Shown here piece after piece: positions 1,861 to 17,135 of a DNA stretch of 64,000 nt. Each line of letters starts with the position of its first letter. Positions within the stretch are counted from its first letter, which is position 1. A model generated the notes under the pieces. It had not been told where the DNA came from. It ran no database searches and saw only the letters and a list, made by a program, of their open reading frames with translations. The translations under genes and the position numbers were made by a program. Location of the stretch: the NCBI GenBank assembly GCA_028282585.1, contig JANQHR010000126.1, forward strand, positions 40,832 through 104,831. Reading direction: 5' to 3'. Origin of the DNA: Bacteroidales bacterium. GTDB taxonomy: Bacteria; Bacteroidota; Bacteroidia; Bacteroidales; UBA12077.

Positions 1861-4800
1861 ATGAAAAATTTCCGTTTATACAATATTGTTGTTGGCTGGA
1901 TTTCATTCTTAATAGCTGCAATTGTTTATATGCTAACCATTGAACCAACTGCCAGTTTTTGGGATTGTGGAGAGTTTATAGCATCTGCATATAAATTAGA
2001 GATTGGTCACCCTCCTGGCGCACCGTTTTTTATGATATTAGGTAGGTTTTTTACAATTTTTACAGGATCTCCGGAAAATGCTGCAAAAATGGTTAATATA
2101 TTATCAGGGTTGGCTAGTGCCTTTACAATATTGTTCTTATTTTGGACAATCACTCATTTTGTTCGTAAAATTGTTATTAAAGCTGATAAAGATTATAGCA
2201 CCGGGAATATTATAACTATTTTAGGTAGTGGATTGGTTGGTGCATTAGCTTATACTTTTTCAGATACTTTTTGGTTTTCAGCTGTTGAAGCAGAAGTTTA
2301 TGCAACATCTTCATTATTTACTGCAGTAGTTTTCTGGGCAATTTTAAAATGGGAAAATGAATCGGACAGAAAATATGCTAATCGCTGGATTATTTTAATT
2401 GCTTATCTGATTGGACTTTCAATTGGTGTTCACCTGTTAAATTTATTGGCGATTCCCGCAATAGTTTTTGTTTATTATTTTAAAAAATACCCGGTAACTA
2501 AAAAAGGAGTATTTTATGCATTATTAATTTCCGGAATTTTATTAGGATCAATCATGTATATATTGATACCAGGCATTGTAAAAGTAGCATCTTGGTTCGA
2601 TTTGTTATTTGTAAATGGATTTGGATTACCATTTAATTCGGGAACAATATTTTACGTAGCTGTTTTAATTTCATTGATTATTTGGGGAATAAAATATACT
2701 CAGCGAAAAGGTAAAGTTGTATTTAATACCATAATTTTGGGAATGACAGTAGTTTTAATAGGATACTCGTCTTACGCAATGATTATTATTCGATCATCTG
2801 CTGATCCACCAATGGATCAAAATAATCCTGATAATGCTTTTGACTTACTTTATTATTTAAATCGGGAACAATATGGAGATAGACCTTTATTTTATGGTCA
2901 GACTTTTGATGCTCCCATGGTTGATAATAAAAAAACAAAGCCTGTCTACATAAAAAAAGGAGGTAAATATATTATAGCAGATCATAAAATTGAAGTTGAA
3001 TATGATGATCGATTTACTACGTTATTTCCAAGAATGTATAGTCCGGATAATAATCATGTAAATGAATATAAAAAGTGGTCAAATCTTGATGGAGATGAAA
3101 TTACAGTTAATTCAAGAGGAGGTCAGGTAGAGAAAAGGATTAAACCTTCTTTTGGAGATAATATAGGATTCTTTATTAGATATCAGGTTGGCCATATGTA
3201 TTTTAGATATTTTATGTGGAATTTCGCCGGGCGACAAAATGATATTCAAGGGCATGGAAATGTTTTAAAAGGAAATTGGTTAAGTGGAATTCCATTTATT
3301 GATAATGCAAGATTAGGAGATCAGGATTTGGTTCCCGAGCATTTGAAAAATAACCCTGCAAGAAATGAATATTTTATGCTCCCATTTATATTAGGATTAG
3401 TTGGATTATTTTTTCATTACAAAAAGCAAAAATATGATTTTACAATAGTGCTAATGTTGTTTATTCTAACAGGTTTGGCAATTGTTGTTTATTTGAATCA
3501 GTATCCGTTACAACCACGCGAACGGGATTATGCCTATGCAGGATCGTTTTATGCATTTTCAATTTGGCTGGGTTTAGGAGTTGCAGGATTAATTGATTTA
3601 TTAAGTAAAAAGGCTCCAAAGGTAATGTCTGCCTCTTTAGTTACTTTAATAACCTTAATATTGGTACCTGGAATAATGGCATCTGAGAATTGGGATGATC
3701 ATGATAGATCAGGACGTTATACCGCAAGAGATATGGCATATAATTACCTTAACTCATGTAAGGAGAATGCTATCTTATTTACAAATGGCGATAATGATAC
3801 GTTTCCGCTTTGGTATGCTCAAGAAGTGGAAGGCATAAGAACAGACATAAAGGTTTGTAATCTGAGTTATTTACGCGCAGCTTGGTATATAGATCAAATG
3901 AGCAGAAAATCATATGAATCGGAAAAACTTCCATTTTCATTAACTTATGAACAATACCATAAAGGGAATCGCGATATTTTGCCAATTTACGATAGAGTAG
4001 GACAGGCAGTTGATGTAAAAGATGTAATGGAATTTATTGCAAGTGATGATCCAAAAACTAAAATTAAATCACCTTTTGTCGCAAATGAAACAATTAATTA
4101 CATCCCAACTGATAAGTTTAAACTGCAGATAAATGCTGAAGATGTGTTGAAAAAGGGTATTGTAAGTGAAAAATACGCAGATAGAATTGAAGATAAAATG
4201 GAATGGAGTTTTGGTCAGCGATATTTATATAAAGACGGATTAATGCTACTTGATATGTTAGCAACAAATAATTGGGAGAGACCAATTTATTGGGCAATGA
4301 CTGTTTCAAGTTCAAAGTATTTTAACCTGCAAAAGTATTTTAAAGTTGATGGGCTAACTTATCAGCTAGTGCCAGTATTGGCTGAGAATGAAAGATTTTA
4401 CAGCGGAGAAGTAGATTCGGATGTAATGTATGATAATATAATGAATAAATTTCGTTGGGGTGGAATAGAAGAAAATGATATTTATTTTGACGAAAATAAC
4501 ATTCGAATGTTTTCTAATTTAAGAAGTAGTTTTGGTCGTTTAGCAGAAAAATTAATTAAAGAAAATAAGAGAGATTCTGCACTAAGAGTTCTTGATCGAT
4601 GTATGGAGCTGTTTCCTGATCATAAAATACCTTACAATAATACTTTGATTTCAGTAATTTCAGCGTATTATCATGCAGAAGCATATGAAACCGCAGATGA
4701 TTTGGTACAGAAGCTTTCGGATAAAGTAAGTGTAGAATTAGACTATTATTTTAGTTTAGATCCGAAATACATGATAGGAACTAAAGACATGTCAAAAGAA

Positions 4801-4926
4801 AAACAATTAAATTTATATATTCTACAGGAGCTATATAAAATTACCGCTGATAATAATCAAATTGAAAAGGCAAAGGATATTGAATTAAGGTTTATGAATT
4901 ATATGCAGTTATATAATAGTTATTAA
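1861..4926 (+). CDS. DUF2723 / TMEM260-like GT-C membrane glycosyltransferase
   Basis: SFWDCGEFIA, HPPGAP, SAVEAEVYA, PRERDY, FTNGDNDTFPLWY motifs; many TM helices. Confidence 0.88.
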   Translation: MKNFRLYNIVVGWISFLIAAIVYMLTIEPTASFWDCGEFIASAYKLEIGHPPGAPFFMILGRFFTIFTGSPENAAKMVNILSGLASAFTILFLFWTITHFVRKIVIKADKDYSTGNIITILGSGLVGALAYTFSDTFWFSAVEAEVYATSSLFTAVVFWAILKWENESDRKYANRWIILIAYLIGLSIGVHLLNLLAIPAIVFVYYFKKYPVTKKGVFYALLISGILLGSIMYILIPGIVKVASWFDLLFVNGFGLPFNSGTIFYVAVLISLIIWGIKYTQRKGKVVFNTIILGMTVVLIGYSSYAMIIIRSSADPPMDQNNPDNAFDLLYYLNREQYGDRPLFYGQTFDAPMVDNKKTKPVYIKKGGKYIIADHKIEVEYDDRFTTLFPRMYSPDNNHVNEYKKWSNLDGDEITVNSRGGQVEKRIKPSFGDNIGFFIRYQVGHMYFRYFMWNFAGRQNDIQGHGNVLKGNWLSGIPFIDNARLGDQDLVPEHLKNNPARNEYFMLPFILGLVGLFFHYKKQKYDFTIVLMLFILTGLAIVVYLNQYPLQPRERDYAYAGSFYAFSIWLGLGVAGLIDLLSKKAPKVMSASLVTLITLILVPGIMASENWDDHDRSGRYTARDMAYNYLNSCKENAILFTNGDNDTFPLWYAQEVEGIRTDIKVCNLSYLRAAWYIDQMSRKSYESEKLPFSLTYEQYHKGNRDILPIYDRVGQAVDVKDVMEFIASDDPKTKIKSPFVANETINYIPTDKFKLQINAEDVLKKGIVSEKYADRIEDKMEWSFGQRYLYKDGLMLLDMLATNNWERPIYWAMTVSSSKYFNLQKYFKVDGLTYQLVPVLAENERFYSGEVDSDVMYDNIMNKFRWGGIEENDIYFDENNIRMFSNLRSSFGRLAEKLIKENKRDSALRVLDRCMELFPDHKIPYNNTLISVISAYYHAEAYETADDLVQKLSDKVSVELDYYFSLDPKYMIGTKDMSKEKQLNLYILQELYKITADNNQIEKAKDIELRFMNYMQLYNSY

Positions 4927-5547
4927 ATGTTAAAAAAAGAACATATTGCAGCAAAAATTCTTAGAGATTTAACCTGGCATTTTGCAGGAAAAGACAATGA
5001 ACTTTTCTTAACTTTTGATGATGGCCCTTCTCCTGAGATTACTCCATGGGTGCTATCTATATTAGCGGAGTATGACGCAAAGGCAACTTTTTTTTGTATA
5101 GGAGGCAAAGTAGATAGAAATCCGAGTTTGTATGAACAAATATTGAAAGAAGGACATTCCGTAGGAAACCATGGATATTTGCACATGAATGGATGGAGAA
5201 CAGGAACCGATAAGTATGTTAGAAATGTTTACAGAGCAGCACATTTTATAAATTCGGATTTATTCAGGCCTCCTTATGGGAGGATTCGTCCAAAACAAAT
5301 TACTCAATTAAAAAAAGAGTTTAGAATTGTAATGTGGGATGTACTATCAGGTGATTACGATAAAAAAGTTAATGAAGTAAGGTGTTTGTACAATGTTCTA
5401 TCTTATGCCGAATCAGGATCAATCATTGTTTTTCATGACAATATGAAGTCTGAGAAAAACCTAAAGTATGTTTTACCAAAAGTGCTTGAGCATTTTACGA
5501 AAAAAGATTTTATATTTAATTCAATAGAGTATAAAAAAATAGATTAA
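4927..5547 (+). CDS. Polysaccharide deacetylase (CE4/NodB)
   Basis: LTFDDGP, GNHGYLH, FRPPYG, IIVFHD motifs. Confidence 0.93.
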   Translation: MLKKEHIAAKILRDLTWHFAGKDNELFLTFDDGPSPEITPWVLSILAEYDAKATFFCIGGKVDRNPSLYEQILKEGHSVGNHGYLHMNGWRTGTDKYVRNVYRAAHFINSDLFRPPYGRIRPKQITQLKKEFRIVMWDVLSGDYDKKVNEVRCLYNVLSYAESGSIIVFHDNMKSEKNLKYVLPKVLEHFTKKDFIFNSIEYKKID

Positions 5548-6713
5548 GATCTTTTATTAAAAAGGAACTTATAAATTAACAAAAAAGGTCTTAAAAAATA
5601 ATAAATAAAAAATAGAGAGTCTTTTATTTTTACTATTTCCCAATCAGACAGATGTGTTCTAAGTCGAAACAATAAATCCAGATAATATTTAGAATCTTTT
5701 TTAAGTTTTAGTCTGTAAAAAACAAACTTCAGTTTTCCTAAGATATTTTTTTGACTAATATCTTTGGTGTTTATAGAGTTTAAAGGCATTCTTATTAAGG
5801 CAGGTTTTATATTAAATTCGATAAAATTTATCTCTTTAGTATGATATATCTTATTCGAAAGCATACAAGCCTGAATAAATGTTTTATCTAGTTTTAATTT
5901 CTTAGATAGGTCGAAAGCAGATTTTAATTCATTTTCATTGCTTTTTGTAATTGAAACAGAAAAATCTTTTAACCAAAATAATCTATACCATTGATGAATA
6001 CTTCCATGCGCAGCCTGATAAACTAAGTTTTCAGTTTTAGAGATATAAGGTAATTTGTAATTTGAAACCTTCAGGTTTTGTTTGTTAGAGATGATATTAT
6101 TTGTTTCTAATCCTAAAAATGATTTAGGGTTAGTCATATTCCAATGCAGTTCAATTTCAATTCCTTGAATTGAATGGACAAAATGATAATGATGACTTAT
6201 GCCATAATTGATTTTTTTTTGTTTTTCTGTTAATTTTATAGAAGGATAGACACAGATAAAATTAAAGTCTTCAATGATTTTTTTTGCTCTTTCAGTATCG
6301 CTGTTTTTTACTAAAACATCAATATCCCTGAAATTTCTAAAACCGATATCATTGTATAAATCGATTGAAAGCAATGGACCTTTAAAGAAACAGTGCTCTA
6401 TATTTTGTTTATTAAATTCCTCATGAATCCTTATCGCATGTATCGCAAAATTTAAAGCACGTTTTGAGTGTTCTAACCGGATTTCTATTAATTTTTCGTA
6501 AACAGGGATAGGTATTTTTTCTGCTAAAAAAGTAGAATGTTTTAATATATGTGATATGACTCTGTGTTTAATGGCAAGCTCAAAAAAGTCATCCCAATCA
6601 ATTTTGGAAAGATCTAATTGATAGTCACTCTCTAATTTATTTTGTGTAAGGTAAATTATAAGTTTGAGTTCTTCTGAAAATTTTGAACTCATATAGCTTT
6701 TTATTTTATTCAT
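5544..6713 (-). CDS. Nucleotidyltransferase (NTP_transf_5 family), lasso-cluster tailoring enzyme
   Basis: FFKGPLL, RNFRDIDVLV, IEIELHW, HGSIH.W.RLFWLKD motifs; start overlaps the cyclase stop region. Confidence 0.85.
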   Translation of the reverse strand: MNKIKSYMSSKFSEELKLIIYLTQNKLESDYQLDLSKIDWDDFFELAIKHRVISHILKHSTFLAEKIPIPVYEKLIEIRLEHSKRALNFAIHAIRIHEEFNKQNIEHCFFKGPLLSIDLYNDIGFRNFRDIDVLVKNSDTERAKKIIEDFNFICVYPSIKLTEKQKKINYGISHHYHFVHSIQGIEIELHWNMTNPKSFLGLETNNIISNKQNLKVSNYKLPYISKTENLVYQAAHGSIHQWYRLFWLKDFSVSITKSNENELKSAFDLSKKLKLDKTFIQACMLSNKIYHTKEINFIEFNIKPALIRMPLNSINTKDISQKNILGKLKFVFYRLKLKKDSKYYLDLLFRLRTHLSDWEIVKIKDSLFFIYYFLRPFLLIYKFLFNKRS

Positions 6714-8578
6714 TTAAACATGGTTGGATTATTTTCAATAAACAGAATTAATTTTAAATAGTTATAAAATGCTCCGGGGTTTATATCCCGATATTTTTTT
6801 TCTGATCTTTTACGTAATTTATTAAACCATTGTTCGTATTTATTTACATCAATATATTGGGTAATTAATTTATTTGATTTTGCCCTTGTAATAATTTCAA
6901 GAATTTGTTCCGAATCATTCATCATTCGCATATGAACAGTAGGAATTGTTGCCCCACTTTTATCATTTCTCCATTGAATTTTTTCAGGAACTATTCCTTC
7001 AAGTGATCTTCGAATCAGGTATCTGCCGATTCCGTTTCTAGCTTTCAACCTGGTTGGAACGGATAAATAATATTCGATTAAACGGATATCAAGTAATGGA
7101 TATCTATATTCGATACCATAGTTTCTTGCTATCAAAGAACAATATTCAAGACGCTGTGATACATGCTGATGTGTAATTCTTTCAATATTTCTTTGTTGTA
7201 GTCCGGTTATATTTAATTTTTGATAATTAGAATAATATCTTTCCTTTATTTTATGTTTTTCTAAAAAAAATGGATTGATTGCCAGGTTTTTAAATTTATA
7301 AGTCCACCAGGGTTTTTTAAATTTTAGTTTTAAAAGAATCGGGAAACGGGATTTTAAAAAAACTTTAAGATACCTTTTTAGATAATTTAAATAATTGGGA
7401 TATTGATTTTTGAGATCAACCTTAAGTTCTTTCCATTTTTTATTTGCAGCCAATTCATTTAAATATCCCGAAGATTTTGAGGTAACTACTTCATCGCCAC
7501 CAAATCCAGAAAGTAAAACAGTTATATTTTCTTGCTTTGCTTTTTCGTATAACTGATCAGAAAATACACCAAAATTTTGCTGAAACAAACTTCTGGTCTC
7601 ACTTACATTTTGTTTTAATGTTTTGAGTAAAGATTTCTCTGATGTTATAAAATTTCGATTCTCTATTTTACTATAATTCGCTAATAGATTTATAAAATCC
7701 CGTTCATCTTTAAAGGGATGAATTTTTCCAAATAAATGGTCTGGTAAAACATGAGAAAATGATTTAACTGGAAGAAAGTTTGAGGCTATAGCCATAACAC
7801 AAGATGAGTCAATTCCACCGCTTAATTCTGCGCCAACCGATTCCACGTATTTGGTTCTGCAACTAACAGATTCAAATAGCAAGTGTTTAAAATCGTTAAT
7901 TATATCAACATCTTTTTTTTGAACTTCCCTTTTAGTGTTTAGTACCCAATATGATTTTATATCGAGCTTATTATTTTTTAATATAAGAATGTGTGCCGGA
8001 GGTAATTTCTTAACTTCGGCATAAGTTGTTCGGAATTTTTCCGATTTTACAATAGAAATTGTATCGGCGACTTGTTGATTGTCAATTGAAAAAACAAGAT
8101 CGGTTTGTTCTAAAATGCTAGCGACATCGGTTGAAAAAACAAATGAGTCTTTATTAAAATAATAATGAAAGGGTTTTATTCCCAAATGATCACGAGCACA
8201 GAAAAGCTCTTCGTTTTTTGAATCCCAGATCGCGAAAGCAAAATCACCGATTAGGTAATTTACGCATTTATTTCCCCATTTTATATATGCTTCTAAAATG
8301 ATAAAATCATCACTGAGGCCTTTATTAATTTCTAAATCTCTGATGATTTCATTTCTATTGTAAATAACAGAATCAGAAACCAGGATAAAACCTGCATAAT
8401 TTAAAATGGGTTGGTTTTCAAAAGGTGGGAAAAGTACTAGCCCAAAACCAGAGTGATTTTCTAGTGTAAATTGAGATTTATTTTTTAAATAAACGGTAAG
8501 TTTTTTGATACTTTTCTTAAAAAGCTCTTGGTTTATAGGTTCTGTGTTAACGTTTACTCTTCCAAATATAGACCGCAT
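6710..8578 (-). CDS. Lasso peptide cyclase (protein C; asparagine synthase-like)
   Basis: GDFAFAIWD, ARDHLGIKP, ELSGGIDSS (PP-loop), LSGFGGDE, YPLLD.RL; N-terminus MRSIFG lacks the AsnB catalytic Cys; clustered with B1/B2/precursor. Confidence 0.9.
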   Translation of the reverse strand: MRSIFGRVNVNTEPINQELFKKSIKKLTVYLKNKSQFTLENHSGFGLVLFPPFENQPILNYAGFILVSDSVIYNRNEIIRDLEINKGLSDDFIILEAYIKWGNKCVNYLIGDFAFAIWDSKNEELFCARDHLGIKPFHYYFNKDSFVFSTDVASILEQTDLVFSIDNQQVADTISIVKSEKFRTTYAEVKKLPPAHILILKNNKLDIKSYWVLNTKREVQKKDVDIINDFKHLLFESVSCRTKYVESVGAELSGGIDSSCVMAIASNFLPVKSFSHVLPDHLFGKIHPFKDERDFINLLANYSKIENRNFITSEKSLLKTLKQNVSETRSLFQQNFGVFSDQLYEKAKQENITVLLSGFGGDEVVTSKSSGYLNELAANKKWKELKVDLKNQYPNYLNYLKRYLKVFLKSRFPILLKLKFKKPWWTYKFKNLAINPFFLEKHKIKERYYSNYQKLNITGLQQRNIERITHQHVSQRLEYCSLIARNYGIEYRYPLLDIRLIEYYLSVPTRLKARNGIGRYLIRRSLEGIVPEKIQWRNDKSGATIPTVHMRMMNDSEQILEIITRAKSNKLITQYIDVNKYEQWFNKLRKRSEKKYRDINPGAFYNYLKLILFIENNPTMFK

Positions 8579-8592
8579 ATATTCGTTTTAAG

Positions 8593-8600
8593 CAAAGATA
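8593..8600 (-). promoter_or_regulatory. Putative Bacteroidota -7 promoter element for cyclase/nucleotidyltransferase
   Basis: TATCTTTG (TAnnTTTG) on minus strand 14 nt upstream of the cyclase ATG. Confidence 0.55.
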
Positions 8601-8657
8601 AGCAATTTACGCAAGTGTCTTTAAACAACTGAAAACAGGATTTTATCTGTTTTTCAA

Positions 8658-8665
8658 TAAATTTG
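8658..8665 (+). promoter_or_regulatory. Putative -7 promoter element for kinase-sulfotransferase-B1-B2 operon
   Basis: TAAATTTG 17 nt upstream of ATG 8683. Confidence 0.45.
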
Positions 8666-8682
8666 TGTTAGTTTGCACTAAA

Positions 8683-9579
8683 ATGAAAAAGAAATTTACA
8701 TATAAAGCATTTGGCTTAATTTTTAACTCGGATTTTGAAATTCCGGAACTCTTAACCGGATCAGGCGATACTGGCATAAAAATCGAGTTGGGGAAGACTC
8801 CAAATCAACTTCAAAAAATTACTAATAAAGGAGTAAAATATGAAGCAACTAAAAATGAATTTTTGCTTCAGGTTGATCACATAGCAAGATATTATGTTCA
8901 AGACGGCGAGAAAATAACCATAGAATTATTAAAAGATAAAGTTGATAAAGAAGTTAGGTTGTTTTTGTTAGGTTCTGCATTTGGTTCTCTTTTTCTTCAA
9001 AGGGGATTGCTGCCGATCCATGGGAGTAGTATTAAGTTCAAAAACTTTGCAACTATATTTACAGGCTTAAGCGGTGTTGGAAAATCAACTATAGCGGCAC
9101 ATTTTGTTAAACTATCTTATCAGGCTTTGGCAGATGACATTAGTGTTATAAATCACCAATTGCAAGTTGCGCCTGGTTTTCCAAGTTTGAAAATATGGAA
9201 TGATGTTTTGGAAAAATTGGAAATTGACAGTGAAAAATTAAATCAAATAAGGCCAAATTTTAAAAAGTTTCGTGTACCGGTTAATGAGCAATATTATTCC
9301 GAACCAGTTCCATTGAAAAATATCGTGATTCTTAGCACAAAAAACTCTCCGGGATTTGAAATCGAGGAGTTAAACGGAATTAAAAAGTTTACTGCAATCA
9401 AGAATAATACCTATCGATATCGATTTGTTCAGGGGCTTGAAAAACAACTGGATCATTTTCAGATTCTTGATAAGCTCTTGCCGAAAATAAAGGTTTATAA
9501 AGTTTCAAAACCACAGGCCCCATTATTGTTAGATGAATTAGGTGATTTTTTATTACAGAAAATTGAATTAAATGTCTAA
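8683..9579 (+). CDS. HPr-kinase-like lasso peptide kinase (PadeK-like); start moved to ATG 8683
   Basis: YKAFGL N-terminus, LLPIHGSSI, Walker A GLSGVGKST, LADD motif. Confidence 0.87.
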   Translation: MKKKFTYKAFGLIFNSDFEIPELLTGSGDTGIKIELGKTPNQLQKITNKGVKYEATKNEFLLQVDHIARYYVQDGEKITIELLKDKVDKEVRLFLLGSAFGSLFLQRGLLPIHGSSIKFKNFATIFTGLSGVGKSTIAAHFVKLSYQALADDISVINHQLQVAPGFPSLKIWNDVLEKLEIDSEKLNQIRPNFKKFRVPVNEQYYSEPVPLKNIVILSTKNSPGFEIEELNGIKKFTAIKNNTYRYRFVQGLEKQLDHFQILDKLLPKIKVYKVSKPQAPLLLDELGDFLLQKIELNV

Positions 9580-10438
9580 GAAAAATATCATATGGTTGGC
9601 TAGTTATCCGAAATCGGGAAATACTTGGTTTCGTATTTTTCTTACTAATTTGTTATACGAATCAGATGATCCTGCGAATATCAATGATTTAGCTGAAACC
9701 TCCATTTCCAGTTCGCGAAAGATATTTGATGAATACACAGGCCTTTCATCTTCCGATTTAACTTTTGAGGAAATTGATACATTACGTCCTTATGTTTATC
9801 GTATACAATCAGAGGAAAGCAATGAGCTATTGTTTAAAAAAGCTCATGATAAGTTTTATAATGTGAATAAAAATCAACCCTTGTTTCCACCGGAAGTTTC
9901 AAAAGGAGTCATTTATTTTATTCGTAATCCATTGGACGTATTAGTTTCTTTTGCATATCACAGTGCTAAACCTATTTCAAGAATGCTACCTTCACTAAAT
10001 AATTCAAAATATGAATTTTGTGGAAGAGATAACAAATTACAAAATCAGTTAAGGCAAATACTAGGAAGCTGGTCTGGTCACGTTTGTAGTTGGATCAACC
10101 AGGATTTAATTCCGATTCATATCATGAGGTATGAAGATATGATCAATGATACTTTTAATACGTTTAAACATGCCGTACAATTTATTGGATTGAAAAAAAC
10201 GGATAAACAAATAAAAACGGCCTTGGCAAAAAGTAGTTTTTCAGTTTTATCGAAACAGGAAAAAAAGGATGGTTTTAGGGAAAAAATGATTCGCACAAAA
10301 TTTTTTTTTCGTAAAGGTCAAATAGGTGATTGGAAAAACCATTTAAGTGAACGGGAGGTAGAAAAAATTGTTTTAAACAATAAAGAAATTATGTTGAAAT
10401 TCAAATACTTGGACAGTAATTACAAACCTATATTTTAA
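9572..10438 (+). CDS. PAPS-dependent sulfotransferase (Sulfotransfer_1)
   Basis: WLASYPKSGNTW (5'-PSB), RNPLDVLVS (3'-PB), RYEDM, FFRKGQIGDWKN; overlaps kinase by 8 nt. Confidence 0.93.
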   Translation: MSKKNIIWLASYPKSGNTWFRIFLTNLLYESDDPANINDLAETSISSSRKIFDEYTGLSSSDLTFEEIDTLRPYVYRIQSEESNELLFKKAHDKFYNVNKNQPLFPPEVSKGVIYFIRNPLDVLVSFAYHSAKPISRMLPSLNNSKYEFCGRDNKLQNQLRQILGSWSGHVCSWINQDLIPIHIMRYEDMINDTFNTFKHAVQFIGLKKTDKQIKTALAKSSFSVLSKQEKKDGFREKMIRTKFFFRKGQIGDWKNHLSEREVEKIVLNNKEIMLKFKYLDSNYKPIF

Positions 10439-10439
10439 A

Positions 10440-10730
10440 ATGGTTAAAATAAAATTAACGGAAAATACTTTAATAAAGAGAAAGAATAGTATTCTAGCCA
10501 GTGATTTGGATGGGGAAAAGGTTATGATGAGTATCCAAAAAGGTGAGTATTATGGTTTAGGGAAAACGGGAACTTTTATTTGGGATCACATTGAAAATTA
10601 CATCTCAATTAGTGATTTAATAACTTTAATTACAGATAAGTATAATGTAAAGAAAGAGCAATGTTTAAAAGATATTATTCCTTTTATAACGGACCTTATT
10701 GAAAAAGAGCTTATTATTGCAACCAATTAG
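10440..10730 (+). CDS. Lasso peptide B1 / PqqD-family RiPP recognition element
   Basis: DLDGEKVMMSIQKGEYYGLGKTGTFIWDHI ... YNV..EQC..DI..FI..L....LI pattern. Confidence 0.93.
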   Translation: MVKIKLTENTLIKRKNSILASDLDGEKVMMSIQKGEYYGLGKTGTFIWDHIENYISISDLITLITDKYNVKKEQCLKDIIPFITDLIEKELIIATN

Positions 10731-10761
10731 AGTTTTTTTACGTTTAAACTTGTGAACACGA

Positions 10762-11202
10762 ATGATGTTCAAACAGATAAAGAAATATTGCAGCTTAGAT
10801 AAAACTGAACGTAAAATCTTGAATCGAACTTTTTTTTGGTTAATTTATGCTTTTGTACTGGTTCGATTAATACCTTTAAAATGGTTTAATTCAATTTTAG
10901 GGGAATATAACAACGTGGTTGAAGTAACTTTAAACACAAAACAACTACAGTTAATTTTTGTGGTTAAAAAAAATATAAGAAGAGTAAAAAAACATTTACC
11001 CTGGAAAGTTAAGTGTTTTGAAGAAGCAATAACAGCAAAAAAATTACTGGAAATGGTTAATATAAAATCAACACTTTACTTAGGAGTCAGAAAAGGGAGT
11101 AAACAGACCTTAAAAGCTCACGCCTGGTTGAAAAGTGGAGATAAATTTGTTAGTGGAGAAAAAGGATATAAAAGTTTTGTGACGGTTGGATTTTATACTT
11201 GA
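10762..11202 (+). CDS. Lasso peptide B2 leader peptidase (transglutaminase-like)
   Basis: KCFEEAITAKKLL (Cys), LYLGV, AHAWL (His) motifs. Confidence 0.92.
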   Translation: MMFKQIKKYCSLDKTERKILNRTFFWLIYAFVLVRLIPLKWFNSILGEYNNVVEVTLNTKQLQLIFVVKKNIRRVKKHLPWKVKCFEEAITAKKLLEMVNIKSTLYLGVRKGSKQTLKAHAWLKSGDKFVSGEKGYKSFVTVGFYT

Positions 11203-11228
11203 TTATATGACACTTATGGAAGATTATA

Positions 11229-11257
11229 AAATTTGCATTAAATTTGATTTAAATTTG
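11229..11257 (+). repeat. Three AAATTTG direct repeats with 11-bp period upstream of the lasso precursor
   Basis: AAATTTG at 11229, 11240, 11251; the last two copies are full TAAATTTG. Confidence 0.6.
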
Positions 11258-11268
11258 AAAAAAGTGAG

Positions 11269-11427
11269 ATGATGAAAGAAAAGAATGTAAATAAGGAAAC
11301 TAGTCAACCATGCAATAAACTTGAATGGGAAGCTCCAAGATTATATTGTTTAGATAAAGGAAAAACAGAAGGGGGAACCTTTAGCGGATATGCTGAAGGT
11401 GTAACATATAATGGTACAGCATCGTAA
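11269..11427 (+). CDS. Lasso peptide precursor (52 aa, not in ORF track): MMKEKNVNKETSQPCNKLEWEAPRLYCLDKGKTE-GGTFSGYAEGVTYNGTAS
   Basis: Hand-translated ATG 11269 (or 11272) to TAA 11427; WxxPxL leader motif, Thr at -2, Gly1, Glu9, C-terminal Ser; directly after B2. Confidence 0.92.
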   Translation: MMKEKNVNKETSQPCNKLEWEAPRLYCLDKGKTEGGTFSGYAEGVTYNGTAS

Positions 11428-11439
11428 ATTTGTTTTATA

Positions 11440-14400
11440 ATGAGAAAAGTTTTATATTTCTTAGGCATCATTCTTATTCCATTAAATTGTTTTAGTCAGG
11501 CATGGATTGTGTCTCAGCATCTAAAAAGTGATAATGATTTAAGAATCTTAGATATTAAAAAAGATGCTGGTAATAATGTTTATGTTACTGGTATTTTTAA
11601 AGGCACATATAATGGTAATACTTCTGAAGGTCTTTTTGATATATTTCTGGCAAAGTTTAATAGTGATTTAAATAAAGAGTGGATTCAAACGGTAGGAAGT
11701 TCATCTGTTGAATTCGACCCTAGGATTACTTTAGATGCAGCAAATAATATTTTTTTAACGGGCGCTTTTAGAGACAGCTGTGTTTTTGATGAAAATATAT
11801 ATTTAAAAAGTGACGGTAACTACGATATTTTTCTCGCAAAGTATTCGAATGTAGGAAATATTATATGGGCAAAAAATATTGCTAATTATCCAACGCAGCA
11901 AAATCCGACTGATATAGATGTTGATGGTAACAACGATCTAATAATAACAGGTCACTTTTCAGACTCTACGTATCTTATAAATCAAAAAATAGTTAGTTCA
12001 GGAAGGAATAGTTTTTTTGCAAAAATTGATACCAGTGGAACTAAAATTTGGGTTAATTATGTGCCAGGAAATAATATATCTTCAAGAATTAATAATATTA
12101 AAGTGTACCAAGATGAATATTATTTTAATGGGTACTTTAGAGATGAGATGTACTTTGATATTGAAACAATTACTAGCAATATACCAGGTCAACAGGATCT
12201 TTTTATTTATAAAACAGACATAAATGGCAATGGATTATGGATAAGAAGAACTTATGGTGATAATTTAGATGCTACTGGTTCTATTGCTGGAGATAATTAT
12301 GGTAATGTTTACTTTACAGGGTACTTTCAAAGCTCAACATTAGCGGTAGATTCAACTGATATTAGTTTATCTAGTCAGATTTTAACCAATAATAATGATT
12401 TTGATATTTTCATATTAAAGTACAATAAAAATGGTAACCTACAGTGGAATAAACAATTTGGACTAAATGGTCGTGATTACGGTGTTGATGTGAATGTCAA
12501 TAATGATATTTTATACATGTCAGGTTATTTTAGCGATACTATAGCTTTTGGTGAATATTCACTTGAATCGACAGGAACAGGGGATAGAGATATGTTTATA
12601 ACTGTTATGGATCTAAATGCGAAGACTTTTAATTCCATATCTCTGGGAGGGATTGATGGCAATGACCTTGCTGCTGGCGCTTTGGTTTTAGAAGACGGAG
12701 ATGCAATCATTAGTGGTTATTTTCAATCATCCAGTATTTCTGTTGGAGATAGCTTATTCATGAATGCTTCACCTGGTTTTAGGGATGGAATAGTTGCAGA
12801 ATATAGGCCACCATTATCTGCAGTTTTTTCAAACGTTGAAAATATTGCCTGTAATTCAGATAATGATGGAGAGCTTACAATAACTGCTGAGTTTGGACAA
12901 AAGCCTTATACGTATTCCTGGAGTCATGATGGAGGTTTAACCGATTCTACTGCAATAGGGCTTTCTGCTGCAACTTATACAGTTACAGTTACAGATGCTG
13001 TTGACTCAACGGCGGTGGTAAGTTACGATTTAACTGAACCGGATGAAATTACGTTTAATCCATTGGTTACCCAGGTAAGTCAATGCAGTTACTCAAAAGA
13101 AGGAGTTATTGATTTAAATGCAGCAGGAGGAAATGGAGGATATACATATCAATGGCAGGCGAGCGAAGGAGGAGATGGTATTGTGTTAAGCGCAGAAGAC
13201 CAATCAGGTTTAGCTATTGGTAGATACGATGTAACAATAACTGACACAGAATTATGTACAAATGATACTATAACTTACATTACCGGACCGGCACCAATTA
13301 CGTTTGGAGGTTCTGTTGTAACTGATTCTTCGGGGATAGGTCCCGGAGCTATTGATTTATCATATACTGGTGGATCTGGAAGTCCTGCTTCTTTTACATT
13401 TGATTGGATTGGCCCATCAGGTCCTCCAGCTACTCATTCTGAAGATACTTCCAACTTGAGTCCTGGAAATTATAGTGTTACTGTTACAGATGTTCATCTT
13501 TGTGAGTTTGATACAACCTTTAATGTTGCAAATTTGGATACATTTTATATATTTATTTCAGACCAAAAAGATGCTTGTTTAGGAACTATTAATGGTAATG
13601 CAACGGTTAGCTTTTCTTCACCTAAAGGACATACGTTAATTAACTATTTATGGGATGTAAATGCAGGAAGCCAAACAACGGCAAAAGCAACTAATTTAGC
13701 TCCCGGGAGATATTATAAAGTTACTGTTACTGATACTGAGAATACGCCGAATACAACTTTAGTTGATAGTGTATATATAGATGAGTTAATATATAATTTG
13801 GCAGGTTCATTGTCAGGTACAACAACACTGGATTGTTACGGTGATACGGATGGTTATATTGATTTAACCATAACCATAGCTGGAGAGTTGCCCTATACTT
13901 ATAATTGGAGTACAGGTTCAAACTTACAGGATATTACCGATCTTGGAATAGGAAATTATAGTGTTACAGTTACTGATGATAATGAGTGTACTTTTTCAAT
14001 TACAAACTATGCTATAAACCAGCCGGAACTTTTAACAGCTTCTGCTGAAATTATAAACGAACCTTCTTGTAACGGGGATTTTGATGGTGAAGTAACTGTT
14101 GATAGAAACGGAGGGACAGCACCTTACACGTACCAATGGGATGACCCCGGATTTCAAGATACCCGCAATGCAGATGGATTAGATGCTGGCTATTACACTG
14201 TAACTGTTACGGATGTAAATAATTGTATGACATTATCTGGAATTAATTTAACCGAACCAGATGTAGTTTCAATTAGTAAAGTAATAAGTGATGAGATATG
14301 TAATTCAGCAGGAGAAGGAGCAGTTACATTAACAACAACGGGAGGTACGGATCCTTTTGGCTATTCTTGGACTACAACTGATGGTTCAGGATTAATATCT

Positions 14401-15753
14401 TCTAATAAAAATCAGACCGGGCTTACAGCAGGGAAATATTATTTTACAGCAACCGATAATAATGGTTGTGCTTTTATGGATAGTGCTGAGATAACGGAAC
14501 CTGAATTACTTCAAATTACCAATGAATCCAAAACAGATGTGAATACCTGTAATGGTGATAACACTGGTACCATAACAATCGCAGCATCAGGAGGTACAGG
14601 TATTTTAACTTATACATTAAATCCTGGAAATATTCAAACAAATAATACAGGGGCATTTACAAGTCTTGGTGCTGGTAATTATACAGTAAATGTTGAAGAT
14701 GAAAATGCATGTGCAGTAGCTTCAAGTTCTCTGAGTATAGCAGAACCGGCTTTATTAATAATTACTAGGAATGATGTAAATGATGCAACTTGTTATGGAA
14801 TTAATAATGGGAATATTGACATTAATGTGTCCGGAGGAACAATTTCATCAGGATATACTTTTAATTGGACAACTTCGGATGGTTCTGGACTAGTTGCAGG
14901 TTCAGAAGATCAGCCAAGTTTAGGAAATGGGACCTATGATTTAACTGTAACTGATGATAATTTATGTTCGGATAATACAAGCTTTGTGTTAACAGAACCT
15001 GAAGCTATTATAGTTAATAAAACAGTGTATGAGCCATCATGCAATGATGATAATGATGGAACTGTAATAGTTACACATTCTGGAGGAACTTTACCTTTTT
15101 CGTATTTTTGGACAACAACAGATGGAAGTGGCTTAGATCCGGTTTATCGAAACCAAGGTGGATTAAGCCCGGGAACGTATTATTTAGAAATTACAGATGC
15201 TTTAGATTGTATAATTAACGAAGCTGTTACAATTACAGCGCCATCTATAATTACTATAGATTCTCAGAGCTCTACTGATGCAACCGATTTTAATACTGCT
15301 GACGGAACAATTTCAGTAACTGCATCCGGAGGTACAAGTACATTGACTTATGTATTAAGACCAGACGATATTTCGAACCAAACCGGTACTTTCAATTCAT
15401 TATTACCTGGTGAATATGTAATAGAAGTTGATGATATTTATTTTTGTGGACCAATAACAACAGATACTATTACTATTGGAGCAATTAATTCAGTTAATTT
15501 AATTTTTGCAGGAGATTTTATTAAAGTGTTTCCTAATCCAACATCAAGTAAAGTATTCGTGGAAATAGATATGAATGCTACCTTTAAATTAGAACTCGCT
15601 AGTATGTCTGGACAAATCTTATATCAGGATGAAATAATCACAAATGGATTTATGAAAGAAGAGATTGATCTTTCCTCATTTACAAAAGGGATTTATTTGC
15701 TGAGAATATATAATAATGAATATTACTTAACAGATAAGCTTATATTGCAGTGA
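11440..15753 (+). CDS. T9SS-secreted protein: SBBP-like beta-propeller repeats, SprB repeats, type A C-terminal sorting domain
   Basis: Signal peptide; repeated D.F..KY...G...W units; repeated GG..PYTY.W...L..G.YTVTVTD.N.C units; C-terminal VFPNPT...IDLS...KGIYLLRI...KLILQ. Confidence 0.9.
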   Translation: MRKVLYFLGIILIPLNCFSQAWIVSQHLKSDNDLRILDIKKDAGNNVYVTGIFKGTYNGNTSEGLFDIFLAKFNSDLNKEWIQTVGSSSVEFDPRITLDAANNIFLTGAFRDSCVFDENIYLKSDGNYDIFLAKYSNVGNIIWAKNIANYPTQQNPTDIDVDGNNDLIITGHFSDSTYLINQKIVSSGRNSFFAKIDTSGTKIWVNYVPGNNISSRINNIKVYQDEYYFNGYFRDEMYFDIETITSNIPGQQDLFIYKTDINGNGLWIRRTYGDNLDATGSIAGDNYGNVYFTGYFQSSTLAVDSTDISLSSQILTNNNDFDIFILKYNKNGNLQWNKQFGLNGRDYGVDVNVNNDILYMSGYFSDTIAFGEYSLESTGTGDRDMFITVMDLNAKTFNSISLGGIDGNDLAAGALVLEDGDAIISGYFQSSSISVGDSLFMNASPGFRDGIVAEYRPPLSAVFSNVENIACNSDNDGELTITAEFGQKPYTYSWSHDGGLTDSTAIGLSAATYTVTVTDAVDSTAVVSYDLTEPDEITFNPLVTQVSQCSYSKEGVIDLNAAGGNGGYTYQWQASEGGDGIVLSAEDQSGLAIGRYDVTITDTELCTNDTITYITGPAPITFGGSVVTDSSGIGPGAIDLSYTGGSGSPASFTFDWIGPSGPPATHSEDTSNLSPGNYSVTVTDVHLCEFDTTFNVANLDTFYIFISDQKDACLGTINGNATVSFSSPKGHTLINYLWDVNAGSQTTAKATNLAPGRYYKVTVTDTENTPNTTLVDSVYIDELIYNLAGSLSGTTTLDCYGDTDGYIDLTITIAGELPYTYNWSTGSNLQDITDLGIGNYSVTVTDDNECTFSITNYAINQPELLTASAEIINEPSCNGDFDGEVTVDRNGGTAPYTYQWDDPGFQDTRNADGLDAGYYTVTVTDVNNCMTLSGINLTEPDVVSISKVISDEICNSAGEGAVTLTTTGGTDPFGYSWTTTDGSGLISSNKNQTGLTAGKYYFTATDNNGCAFMDSAEITEPELLQITNESKTDVNTCNGDNTGTITIAASGGTGILTYTLNPGNIQTNNTGAFTSLGAGNYTVNVEDENACAVASSSLSIAEPALLIITRNDVNDATCYGINNGNIDINVSGGTISSGYTFNWTTSDGSGLVAGSEDQPSLGNGTYDLTVTDDNLCSDNTSFVLTEPEAIIVNKTVYEPSCNDDNDGTVIVTHSGGTLPFSYFWTTTDGSGLDPVYRNQGGLSPGTYYLEITDALDCIINEAVTITAPSIITIDSQSSTDATDFNTADGTISVTASGGTSTLTYVLRPDDISNQTGTFNSLLPGEYVIEVDDIYFCGPITTDTITIGAINSVNLIFAGDFIKVFPNPTSSKVFVEIDMNATFKLELASMSGQILYQDEIITNGFMKEEIDLSSFTKGIYLLRIYNNEYYLTDKLILQ

Positions 15754-15770
15754 TAAAATAACATATTTGA

Positions 15771-15800
15771 AAAAAGCTCTCACCATGAGAGCTTTTTTTT
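15771..15800 (+). terminator. Rho-independent terminator after the T9SS gene
   Basis: AAAAAGCTCTCA-CCA-TGAGAGCTTTTTTTT perfect stem plus U-tract. Confidence 0.85.
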
Positions 15801-15831
15801 ATTGTAATTTGTAGTCCAACTCTTAGATGAT

Positions 15832-15839
15832 TATCTTTG
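15832..15839 (+). promoter_or_regulatory. Putative -7 promoter element of purD
   Basis: TATCTTTG 21 nt upstream of ATG 15861. Confidence 0.55.
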
Positions 15840-15860
15840 TTTTCTTTAAAACTTAAAATT

Positions 15861-17135
15861 ATGAATATACTTTTACTTGGTACAGGGGGGCGCGAACACG
15901 CGTTAGCATGGAAAATTGATCAAAGTAATAAAGTTAAGAATCTATACATAGCGCCAGGTAATGCTGGGACTTCTGATATTGGTGAGAACATAAACATTAG
16001 TTTGTCAGATTTTGAAGCAGTAAAGAAAGTAGTTATTGATAAGGAAGTAGATTTAGTAGTGGTAGGTCCAGAACAACCATTGGTTGATGGGATTGTTGAT
16101 TTCTTCGCTTTAGATTCGGATATAAAAAATATCCCGATTATTGGACCGTCAAAGTTAGGTGCTAAGTTGGAGGGTAGCAAAGATTTTGCTAAAGCATTTA
16201 TGCAAAAATACCAAATACCTACGGCAAGGTATCAATCTTTTAATAAAAAAACTATCGTTGATGGAAAGAGATTCCTTGAAACTTTGTCGGCCCCTTATGT
16301 ATTGAAAGCAGATGGTCTGGCTGCAGGCAAGGGAGTGTTAATTTTAGATGACTTAGAACAAGCTCAAACCTCACTGGAAAATATGCTTAATGGTCAGTTT
16401 GGAGAAGCAAGCAAAACAGTAGTTATTGAGGAATTTTTAAAAGGTATAGAACTTTCCGTATTTATTGTTACAGATGGAAAATCGTATAAATTATTACCGG
16501 AAGCAAAAGATTATAAGCGAATAGGAGAAGGTGATACCGGATTAAATACAGGTGGAATGGGCGCTGTATCTCCTGTTCCATTTGCAGATAAGGAGTTTTT
16601 ATCAAAAGTTGAAGAAAGAGTAATTAAACCTACTATTGACGGTTTAATAAAAGAAAATATAAAATACAAAGGATTTATATTTTTTGGCCTAATGAATGTT
16701 AAAGGAGATCCATATGTAATTGAATACAATGTGCGTATGGGAGATCCGGAAACAGAAGTTGTCATACCACGTATAAAATCTGATTTAGTTGACTTGTTTG
16801 TACATACAGCTAATAGTACACTGGAAAATGCGGAATTAATTATTGATGAAAATTTTTGCACGACGGTAATGTTAGTATCTGAAGGATATCCTGAAAAATA
16901 TGAAAAAGGCAAAAAAATAACTAACCTGGAAAAAGTAAAGGAATCCATCATATTTCACGCGGGAACTATTAATAAAGATGATCATGTTTATACAAATGGA
17001 GGGAGAGTTATAGCAATTTCTTCGTATGGTGAAAATATGGATGCTGCATTGCTAAAGTCATATAGGAATATTGACGCTATTAAATTTGAAGGAAAAAATT
17101 ACAGAAAAGATATTGGATTTGATCTAAAAGAATAA
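15861..17135 (+). CDS. purD: Phosphoribosylamine--glycine ligase (start at ATG 15861)
   Basis: LLGTGGREHALAW, VVGPEQPL, KADGLAAGKGV, DYKR..EGDTGLNTGGMGA, EYNVRMGDPE. Confidence 0.97.
   Translation: MNILLLGTGGREHALAWKIDQSNKVKNLYIAPGNAGTSDIGENINISLSDFEAVKKVVIDKEVDLVVVGPEQPLVDGIVDFFALDSDIKNIPIIGPSKLGAKLEGSKDFAKAFMQKYQIPTARYQSFNKKTIVDGKRFLETLSAPYVLKADGLAAGKGVLILDDLEQAQTSLENMLNGQFGEASKTVVIEEFLKGIELSVFIVTDGKSYKLLPEAKDYKRIGEGDTGLNTGGMGAVSPVPFADKEFLSKVEERVIKPTIDGLIKENIKYKGFIFFGLMNVKGDPYVIEYNVRMGDPETEVVIPRIKSDLVDLFVHTANSTLENAELIIDENFCTTVMLVSEGYPEKYEKGKKITNLEKVKESIIFHAGTINKDDHVYTNGGRVIAISSYGENMDAALLKSYRNIDAIKFEGKNYRKDIGFDLKE

Follow-up and report, generated by a model that had tools for sequence, protein, structure and literature searches.

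Organization of the lasso-peptide cluster

The window, by which we mean the whole 64-kb stretch of DNA that was analysed, comes from a Bacteroidota bacterium with a genome of 4.89 Mb and carries what, to judge from the predicted gene products, is a real and intact seven-gene lasso-peptide cluster of the paeninodin type (N, C, K, ST, B1, B2 and A). The genes K-ST-B1-B2-A form a plus-strand operon, and C and N are transcribed divergently from it. The predicted features are listed below.

5544..6713, minus strand: N, PsmN-type uncharacterised NTP transferase, 389 aa (PF14907 NTP_transf_5, E 9.7e-46, 156.8 bits against a cut-off of 31.2)
6710..8578, minus strand: C, lasso macrolactam cyclase, 622 aa, divergent from K (PF00733, 1.4e-43; GATase_7, 8.8e-24)
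8683..9579, plus strand: K, HprK-like lasso-peptide Ser kinase, 298 aa (weak, sub-cut-off HprK matches in Pfam and NCBIfam; H113, G133-K134-S135, D151, D152)
9572..10438, plus strand: ST, PAPS-type sulfotransferase, 288 aa (PF00685, E 6.2e-28)
10440..10730, plus strand: B1, PqqD-like RiPP recognition element, 96 aa (PF05402, 1.4e-15; NF033536, 8.6e-28, 96.3 bits against a cut-off of 80)
10762..11202, plus strand: B2, lasso leader peptidase, 146 aa (PF13471, 8.2e-17; NF033537, 4.8e-20, 72.3 bits against a cut-off of 33)
11269..11427, plus strand: A, precursor, 52 aa (leader WEAP motif, Thr at −2, core GGTFSGYAEGVTYNGTAS; assigned by motif and position)
11440..15753, plus strand: SprB-repeat protein with a T9SS sorting tail, 1437 aa, a possible operon member (PF13573, 7.6e-59; PF18962, 2.2e-12)
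15769..15799, plus strand: terminator-like hairpin with a 14-bp stem and a T run, closing the plus-strand operon (consensus scan only)

The lasso core set (C, B1 and B2) is complete: B1 and B2 exceeded their NCBIfam cut-offs, and C gave a strong yet sub-cut-off match to the lasso cyclase model NF033535 (4.5e-115, 385.7 bits against a model cut-off of 525 bits) and a score above the Pfam cut-off for Asn_synthase. In the open reading frame list, N and the 3′ end of C have 4 nt in common. Upstream of the K start codon, ATG at 8683, the sequence offers an in-frame GTG at 8665 as an alternative start. A previous reading of the window, made from the sequence only, had described ST as overlapping K by 8 nt and ending 1 nt before B1, and the open reading frame list and the sequence bore this out: the overlap spans 9572-9579, the ST stop codon TAA lies at 10436-10438, and the B1 ATG follows at 10440 after a gap of 1 nt. 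ST is translationally coupled to K within the maturation operon.

The SprB-repeat gene starts 12 nt 3′ of A with no terminator-like site between the two, and homologues of its product are encoded 3′ of the precursor gene in seven related Bacteroidales loci; the plus-strand operon possibly extends into this gene for a secreted protein. No ABC exporter gene was found within 4927-17135. A sigma-70 promoter scan returned 54 sites against 55.9 expected, the sigma-70 consensus being one that does not model Bacteroidota promoters. The polysaccharide deacetylase encoded at 4927-5547 was considered as the partner in an N-deacetylase/N-sulfotransferase pair and rejected, being part of a convergent upstream operon with a TMEM260-like glycosyltransferase; its synteny is confined to Bacteroidales loci.

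Sulfotransferase, kinase and precursor

ST is a PAPS-dependent sulfotransferase whose transfer activity is predicted. Its match to PF00685 scored 98.3 bits against a cut-off of 22 and covered profile positions 4-243 of 255. The motifs YPKSGNTW, IRNPLDVLVS and FFRKGQIGDWKNH matched the PAPS-binding stretches of SULT2A8 and oestrogen sulfotransferase column for column and were invariant among 21 relatives, in agreement with the earlier description of intact PAPS motifs; K14, K90, H92, R118, S126, R247 and G249 likewise showed no variation in the 21 relatives. K90 and H92, both invariant in the clade, lie in a stretch that HMMER did not align to any solved chain, and by its spacing H92, with a Lys two residues earlier (K90), is the putative equivalent of the catalytic His of SULTs. 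The alignment with solved homologues was good only at residues ~105-275, and residues 20-100 are clade-specific. When solved structures were searched with the ST clade profile, Teg12 (7.7e-19), Teg14 (2.6e-17) and StaL (7.8e-12) were found together with cytosolic SULTs, and aryl sulfotransferases also lay near ST; a single-sequence search of the PDB put alcohol-type SULT2 enzymes on top, so that the ST fold gives no pointer to phenols.

ST is single-copy in the genome. No PAPS-synthesis genes are present in the 64-kb window, as had been noted before, and the search for cysDN and cysC elsewhere in the genome that had been proposed along with that observation led to the sole APS-kinase match in the 4.89-Mb genome, on contig C135, where it stands beside CysD- and CysN-like genes in a cysC-cysD-cysN row. 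PAPS for ST would come from these genes on the other contig.

In K, the residues H113, K134, D151 and D152 make up the whole His-Lys-Asp-Asp set, a motif that the available text of PMC9266682 names for HprK-like lasso kinases, and H113, G133-K134-S135, D151 and D152 were invariant or nearly so in 25 relatives. PadeK, ThcoK and SyanK are described in the available texts as (poly)phosphorylating the C-terminal Ser of the precursor in its linear form (PMC9266682, PMC8498205), and by homology with these kinases and PsmK, K would phosphorylate the hydroxyl of the C-terminal Ser18 on the linear precursor. The previous assignment of a PadeK-type kinase and a PsmN-type transferase acting at a C-terminal Ser is in keeping with the essential residues of K, the PF14907 domain of N and the Ser end of the precursor. 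The candidate role of K as a PAPS-forming kinase was rejected, because K homologues that occur without ST matched the K profile equally well and, according to the available text of PMC9266682, homologues are proven peptide kinases.

The precursor A was assigned by motif and position because a short leader HMM did not recover it at E ≤1. It fits the lasso precursor motif as defined in the available text of PMC13381572, with a Y/WxxP leader, Thr at −2, a core beginning with Gly/Ala/Ser, and Asp/Glu at position 7-9 of that core, and its leader/core pattern is the same as that of the candidate precursors of related loci. The leader runs ...LEWEAPRLYCLDKGKTE, and if it is cut after ...GKTE, with Thr at −2, the core GGTFSGYAEGVTYNGTAS starts with GGTFSGYAE, which includes Glu9, and ends with ...NGTAS; the predicted ring is Gly1-Glu9. 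Given this cleavage site, the residues listed in the previous reading (Tyr7, Tyr13, three Thr and two Ser) are all present, the Thr at positions 3, 12 and 16 and the Ser at positions 5 and 18.

Kinase-sulfotransferase pairing in related loci

At least 578 relatives were confirmed in species-representative genomes. Of 80 loci, 77 contained K, and the other three had 0, 0 and 420 nt upstream of ST; K was present in 41/41 loci with at least 8 kb on both sides. Its place was directly upstream of ST on the same strand in 73 of the 74 loci with at least 900 nt upstream of ST, the exception being a locus (L065) in which K is divergent from ST, and the projected distance from the K end to the ST start was ≤60 nt in 70/76 related loci, a tight spacing that exceeds chance. 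By their titles, the K-ST loci come from Bacteroidota, Chloroflexota, Pseudomonadota, Acidobacteriota, Cyanobacteria, Verrucomicrobiota, Actinomycetota, Gemmatimonadota and a Sporomusa. The genes C, B1 or B2 were also present in 76 of the 80 ST-clade loci, three of the other four being short or cut contigs. N was detected in 23 of the 41 full-context loci (at least 8 kb on both sides) and in 35/80 overall, by an iterated HMM that divergent N or other glycosyltransferases may escape. The K-ST pair is a fixed two-gene unit of many phyla and is not special to the source genome; the co-occurrence of kinase and sulfotransferase has been in print since 2014 (PMC4289311), and the window is an ordinary, typical example of a class of clusters that is known but biochemically unsolved.

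Fourteen longer homologues comprised seven ST-K, five K-ST, one ST-ST and one fusion of ST with a lasso cyclase, so that K/ST fusions made up 12/14, in both orders, and ST-N fusions 0/14. Pfam searches on five of the 14 agreed with these assignments for four, and P0121, of the ST-K type with a degenerate kinase domain, showed an ST domain only. The fusions support a putative physical link between K and ST, and the ST-K order could not be produced by read-through of the usual K-then-ST gene pair. In six of the seven ST-K fusions the catalytic His is replaced by Trp or Gln and the second Asp by Asn or Thr, and in two loci (L044 and L059) a degenerate K adjoins ST and an intact K is encoded elsewhere in the locus; the partner of ST apparently need not be an active kinase. 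The dependence is one-sided, as ST travels with K or a kinase-like domain and K often occurs without ST. Full-length K (E ≤1e-30) was found in 28 of 401 Bacteroidota genomes, with ST adjacent to it in only two of these 28, the source genome included, and ST was absent from all 20 K-only loci with 8 kb flanks.

The candidate precursors of the related loci were compared. A C-terminal Ser was found in 55 of 64 precursors (50 loci) and another end in nine, 25 of the 64 (the A of the window and 24 others) having been chosen by eye from weak matches and one HMM match (L021_1077) having been left out as implausible. In this set, where several cleavage sites are uncertain and where the counts overstate independence because the loci are related to one another, Tyr was present in 40/59 assigned cores of K-ST loci and missing from 19/59, against 3/10 K-only Bacteroidota precursors with Tyr, those three from one genus; in 13 of 46 loci every candidate core was free of Tyr. 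The loci closest to the window within the Bacteroidales (L004, L006, L010, L011, L012, L016, L020 and L028) repeatedly show a Tyr three to four residues past the ring acid, and the same position is Phe or non-aromatic in other loci, such as L023, L024, L018 and L022. ST was unchanged at ten conserved PAPS/catalytic positions in 12 of the 13 Tyr-less loci; the Tyr-less locus L044 has two ST copies with one substitution each.

Possible sulfate acceptors and comparison with known systems

With a probability of about 0.4, we propose that ST works only together with the kinase or a kinase-like domain, as its obligate partner, and that its substrate is the linear precursor, modified at the kinase site or beside it. 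We infer that ST modifies the peptide at all and that it depends on K, and likewise the identity of the acceptor. The kinase or kinase-like domain would bring the precursor to ST, so that ST would act at, or right beside, the site that the kinase itself uses. Sulfate would be placed on the phosphate of phospho-Ser18, on the hydroxyl of Ser18 or on a hydroxyl nearby, for instance that of Thr16, with Tyr not serving as acceptor as a general rule. N may then attach a hexose to the phosphate in a PsmN-like manner, and as the last step B1/B2 and C would remove the leader and close the Gly1-Glu9 ring. The acceptor evidence favours the C terminus, as suggested by the Ser ends (55/64) and the Tyr-less loci with their ST residues kept (13/46). 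Phosphate is already usable as an acceptor by K-family kinases, as the polyphosphorylation described in the available texts indicates, and PsmN attaches hexose to it (PMC9266682, PMC6993621). On the other hand, what the kinase-like domain recognises might be the leader, or the linear state of the peptide, and not the C terminus, and ST could then reach any core residue; moreover, the literature searched contained no report of a sulfated lasso peptide, in line with the earlier statement on this point, so that ST could be inactive on peptides.

It seems improbable to us that ST, docked by K or a dead kinase-like domain, sulfates the phosphate of the C-terminal phosphoserine to give a peptide-bound phosphosulfate, an APS-like mixed anhydride. 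We know of no protein or peptide that carries a phosphosulfate modification, and of no precedent for a sulfotransferase that sulfates a phosphate oxygen. The mass of a peptide phosphosulfate is close to that of a diphosphate.

A possible, though rather unlikely, alternative is that ST makes a sulfotyrosine lasso peptide, with Tyr13 in the tail or Tyr7 in the ring as acceptor, and that K independently phosphorylates Ser18. The core in the window has two Tyr, the post-ring Tyr recurs in the closest Bacteroidales loci, and the commoner occurrence of Tyr in K-ST cores than in K-only precursors (40/59 vs 3/10) weakly favours Tyr; in addition, the profile search placed ST nearest to aryl sulfotransferases and to Teg12, Teg14 and StaL, enzymes that sulfate phenolic hydroxyls of peptide antibiotics. 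However, ST looks intact in the 13/46 loci that have no Tyr in any candidate core, the Phe or non-aromatic residue at the recurrent position in other loci suggests a structural plug and not an acceptor, and the single-sequence search ranked alcohol-type SULT2 first. Moreover, a Tyr acceptor does not explain the constant pairing or fusion of ST with kinase-like domains, dead-looking ones included.

Sugar hydroxyls are common sulfotransferase acceptors and the window encodes N (PF14907), but we consider it very doubtful that ST sulfates a hexose attached by N to phospho-Ser18 to yield a sulfo-glycosyl-phospho lasso peptide. PsmN is required for one to two hexoses on the phospho-Ser of pseudomycoidin, according to the available text of PMC6993621, whereas N occurs in 23/41 full-context loci (35/80 overall) against 41/41 for K, and among the 14 longer homologues ST is fused with K and C, never with N. 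The sequence-only reading had named a Tyr or the appended sugar as the target of ST; neither holds as a family rule, given the 13/46 Tyr-less loci with ST residues kept and the presence of N in 23/41, but Tyr may be the acceptor in the Bacteroidales subgroup in which it recurs. It is equally doubtful that ST leaves the lasso peptide alone, either acting on another small molecule or glycan or being a non-catalytic passenger, with a product that is only phosphorylated with or without hexose: to our knowledge, published heterologous work on kinase-class clusters has given phosphate and hexose only, and no sulfated lasso peptide was found in the literature searched, but 76/80 ST-clade loci also encode C, B1 or B2, conservation of the PAPS and catalytic residues extends across phyla, and ST is fused to K and to a cyclase and translationally coupled inside the operon.

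As regards the proposed partnership of ST with the kinase, the comparative data point to peptide sulfation by a K-ST unit that is neither unique to the source genome nor clearly Tyr-directed. If ST acts on the peptide, sulfation would join the known modifications of lasso peptides, and kinase and sulfotransferase would constitute a two-enzyme tailoring unit of hundreds of species in many phyla. The data narrow the question to whether ST needs the K protein or the K product, and whether the target is the terminal Ser or phospho-Ser or a Tyr. Sulfate and phosphate lie 9.5 mDa apart, so that species from K-ST clusters taken as 'polyphosphorylated' need high-resolution mass spectrometry.

The cluster resembles the paeninodin-type clusters of PadeK, ThcoK and SyanK, as far as the available texts describe them, in its split B1/B2, its C cyclase, its HprK-like kinase with His-Lys-Asp-Asp, its WxxP leader and the C-terminal Ser of its precursor (PMC9266682, PMC8498205), and differs from these systems in its K-coupled ST, in having no ABC exporter gene within 4927-17135 and in its Bacteroidota host. 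With the pseudomycoidin cluster of Bacillus pseudomycoides (PsmK, PsmN) it shares a kinase and an uncharacterised NTP transferase, and PsmN is needed for the hexose on the phosphorylated C-terminal Ser of pseudomycoidin, as given in the available text (PMC6993621); a sulfotransferase is unmentioned in that paper, where 'sulf' occurs 0 times. Unlike in the pseudomycoidin cluster, N of the window adjoins C on the opposite strand and does not lie between B2 and D. ST is distantly like Teg12, Teg14, StaL and the cytosolic SULTs in its PF00685 fold family and PAPS motifs; these enzymes act alone on non-ribosomal peptide scaffolds and are not known to be paired with a kinase. Sulfation defines a single RiPP class, the sulfatyrotides (RaxX/RaxST), in which it depends on PAPS according to the available text of PMC9484694, but they have a Tyr acceptor on a linear peptide and neither a lasso fold nor a kinase partner, and the present cluster is not assigned to this class. 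The LPP clusters of Bacillota (Popov et al. 2026) differ in their signal-peptidase-like leader peptidase, in having no cyclase and in the phosphorylation of Ser3, and the available text does not mention a sulfotransferase (PMC13381572). What the present cluster has in common with them, as described in the same available text, is the HprK-like kinase, the NTP transferase, the RRE and the Y/WxxP leader, which shows that the kinase module moves between RiPP classes.

The lasso-peptide cluster and its neighbours

ORF calls together with Pfam and NCBIfam profiles revealed a compact lasso-peptide cluster at ~5.5–11.4 kb of the window, in which the genes C and K are divergent and separated by a 104-nt gap.

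Features of the cluster and its surroundings
1861–5547, + strand: TMEM260-like protein O-mannosyltransferase (PF11028, 4.5e-79) and polysaccharide deacetylase (PF01522)
5544–6713, − strand: N, NTP transferase (PF14907, E 9.7e-46)
6710–8578, − strand: C, lasso cyclase (Asn_synthase, 1.4e-43; NCBIfam lasso cyclase model, 4.5e-115, under that model's cut-off)
8683–9579, + strand: K, HprK-like kinase
9572–10438, + strand: ST, sulfotransferase (PF00685, 6.2e-28)
10440–10730, + strand: B1, RRE protein (NF033536, over cut-off)
10762–11202, + strand: B2, leader peptidase (NF033537, over cut-off)
11269–11427, + strand: A, precursor of 52 residues
11440–15753, + strand: SprB-repeat protein with a T9SS sorting tail, 1437 aa, starting 12 nt past the precursor stop
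15769–15799, + strand: terminator-like site, a 14-bp hairpin 3′ of the SprB-repeat gene

The sequence-only reading had given the coordinates and junctions of the K-ST pair exactly, including the 8-nt overlap and the 1 base between the ST stop and the B1 start. The precursor carries the leader motif WEAP, a Thr at −2 and the core GGTFSGYAEGVTYNGTAS, with Glu9 as the ring acceptor and Ser as the C-terminal residue. The window holds a single precursor gene, unlike some K-ST loci (L038, 13863–14795; L045, 11108–11598; L068 and L069), where 3–5 precursor genes stand in tandem; their leaders resemble one another, their cores diverge, and almost all end in Ser.

ST aligns with sulfotransferases of solved structure over its three PAPS-binding stretches, and K14, K90, H92, R118, S126, R247 and G249 are invariant among 21 relatives. 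By their spacing, K90 and H92 may correspond to the catalytic Lys and His of SULTs; they lie in a stretch that did not align to any solved chain. K has H113, K134, D151 and D152; the corresponding His-Lys-Asp-Asp residues of ThcoK are termed essential in the available text of a review (PMC9266682). ST and the lasso-type K are each present once in the 4.89-Mb assembly. The search for cysDN/cysC elsewhere in the genome, which the sequence-only reading had proposed, was positive: the only APS-kinase gene lies on contig C135 in a row with CysD- and CysN-like genes. By gene content, the host is predicted to be able to make PAPS.

No terminator-like site was found between the precursor and SprB-repeat genes. 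The first 460 residues of the SprB-repeat protein have no match in Pfam, and homologues of its N-terminal 450–1100 residues lie directly 3′ of the precursor in L004, L010, L011, L012, L016, L020 and L028, which suggests that Bacteroidales lasso operons may include a secreted surface protein as a conserved component. On the other side, the TMEM260-like and deacetylase genes are convergent on N; roughly a dozen Bacteroidales loci have both genes flanking their lasso clusters, and the simplest explanation is conserved synteny rather than membership of the cluster. No ABC-type exporter gene is located in or beside the cluster (window 4927–17135), which is bordered by genes for the deacetylase, the SprB-repeat protein, purD (15837–17135) and a DUF6427 membrane protein.

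One-sided dependence of the sulfotransferase on the kinase

Each species was represented by a single genome in a pattern scan that yielded at least 578 confirmed ST relatives, of which the best 80 loci, with record titles spanning at least nine phyla, were retained, and iterated HMMs seeded with the window proteins were run over all their ORFs. Among these best 80 of at least 578, ST was preceded by at least 900 nt in 74 loci, and K was its immediate 5′ neighbour in the same orientation in 73 of them, the exception being L065 with a divergent K. K was present somewhere in 77/80, the three misses having ST at a contig edge, and at least one of C, B1 and B2 in 76/80. The 41 of these loci with at least 8 kb on each side contained K (41), B1 (37), C (36), B2 (27) and N (23). 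K and ST were projected to lie within 60 nt of each other at 70 of the 76 loci compared, so that the 8-nt overlap in the window is one local instance of a translational coupling that is general.

Within the same best 80, the His/Lys/Asp/Asp set was kept in 67 of 78 unfused ST-adjacent K ORFs and deviant in 11, by Asp-to-Glu alone in six and more severely in five (L030, L044, L046, L059 and L079); L044 and L059 have an intact K elsewhere in the locus. Domain mapping of 14 longer ST homologues gave seven ST-K, five K-ST, one ST-ST and one ST-lasso cyclase arrangement; Pfam, applied to five, agreed for four and detected the ST domain alone in P0121. The ST-lasso cyclase fusion is P0129 (897 aa) and the tandem double sulfotransferase P0128 (589 aa). 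ST-K fusions cannot be gene-calling read-through because their order reverses the usual gene order, and six of the seven have Trp/Gln at the catalytic His position and Asn/Thr at the second Asp.

Across the source genome and 400 sampled genomes of other Bacteroidota species, full-length lasso-type K (E ≤ 1e-30) occurred in 28 of 401, and ST adjoined it only in the source genome and one other (G383). Three sampled genomes of one genus carried a more distant ST homologue, far from the lasso-type K in two and accompanied by no K match in the third. ST was absent from 20/20 K-only loci (8-kb flanks), which implies that K functions without ST, as published. Loci with this ST clade practically always had K as well, and the dependence is one-sided. 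In the K-only Bacteroidota loci L129, L132 and L135, several small genes with WxxP-type leaders adjoin K, C and B1; their cores terminate in ...SDCR or ...LSGL/LSGP, not Ser, and they form a separate family of precursors that has the kinase-class machinery in common with the others.

The acceptor of the sulfotransferase

Candidate precursors numbered 64, from 50 of the best 80 of at least 578 loci; 39 were recovered by a leader HMM (E ≤ 0.01, one implausible match removed) and 25, including the window's own, were selected by eye among weaker matches. Their C termini were Ser (55), Asn (3), Pro (2), Thr (2), Phe (1) and Gly (1). We favour, at a probability of about 0.4, a mechanism in which K would transfer phosphate onto Ser18 of the still linear precursor and recruit ST, which would sulfate at or beside this residue, its acceptor being the phosphate, the hydroxyl of the Ser or another hydroxyl nearby. 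N would possibly add a hexose to the phosphate, and B1/B2 and C would complete the lasso last.

The sequence-only reading had placed ST within the maturation operon, which holds, and had proposed Tyr or the appended sugar as acceptor, which is wrong or at least unproven. Sulfation of Tyr is the less probable but still serious alternative: Tyr-bearing cores are commoner at K-ST loci (40/59 assignable cores, 19 lacking Tyr) than among K-only precursors (3/10, those three from one genus), in a comparison that is small and not phylogenetically independent, but Tyr is absent from every core at 13 of 46 loci, and in 12 of these the ten conserved ST positions are unchanged, L044 having two copies with one substitution each. 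The Tyr lies three to four residues past the ring acid in Bacteroidales relatives, and its replacement elsewhere by Phe or nothing aromatic is consistent with a steric plug. Sulfation of the sugar is improbable, as N is missing too often (present in 23 of the 41 well-flanked loci) for the family as a whole to use a sugar as acceptor, and there is equally little likelihood that ST leaves the peptide unsulfated.

Relation to described lasso clusters

Letzel et al. (2014; PMC4289311) reported that some lasso clusters contain genes for an HPr kinase and a sulfotransferase, the role of which they term unclear, and a 2021 review (PMC8498205) cites Zhu 2016 for a putative sulfotransferase gene beside some clusters. 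The available text of the 2022 review on unusual lasso modifications (PMC9266682) holds no word starting with "sulf", and full-text literature searches, which returned titles and abstract starts and whose coverage excludes most subscription journals, gave no report of a sulfated lasso peptide. The cluster is an ordinary representative of a class that is widespread and recognised but biochemically unsolved, and its value is that of a clean, complete test case with one K, one ST, one precursor and PAPS genes present.
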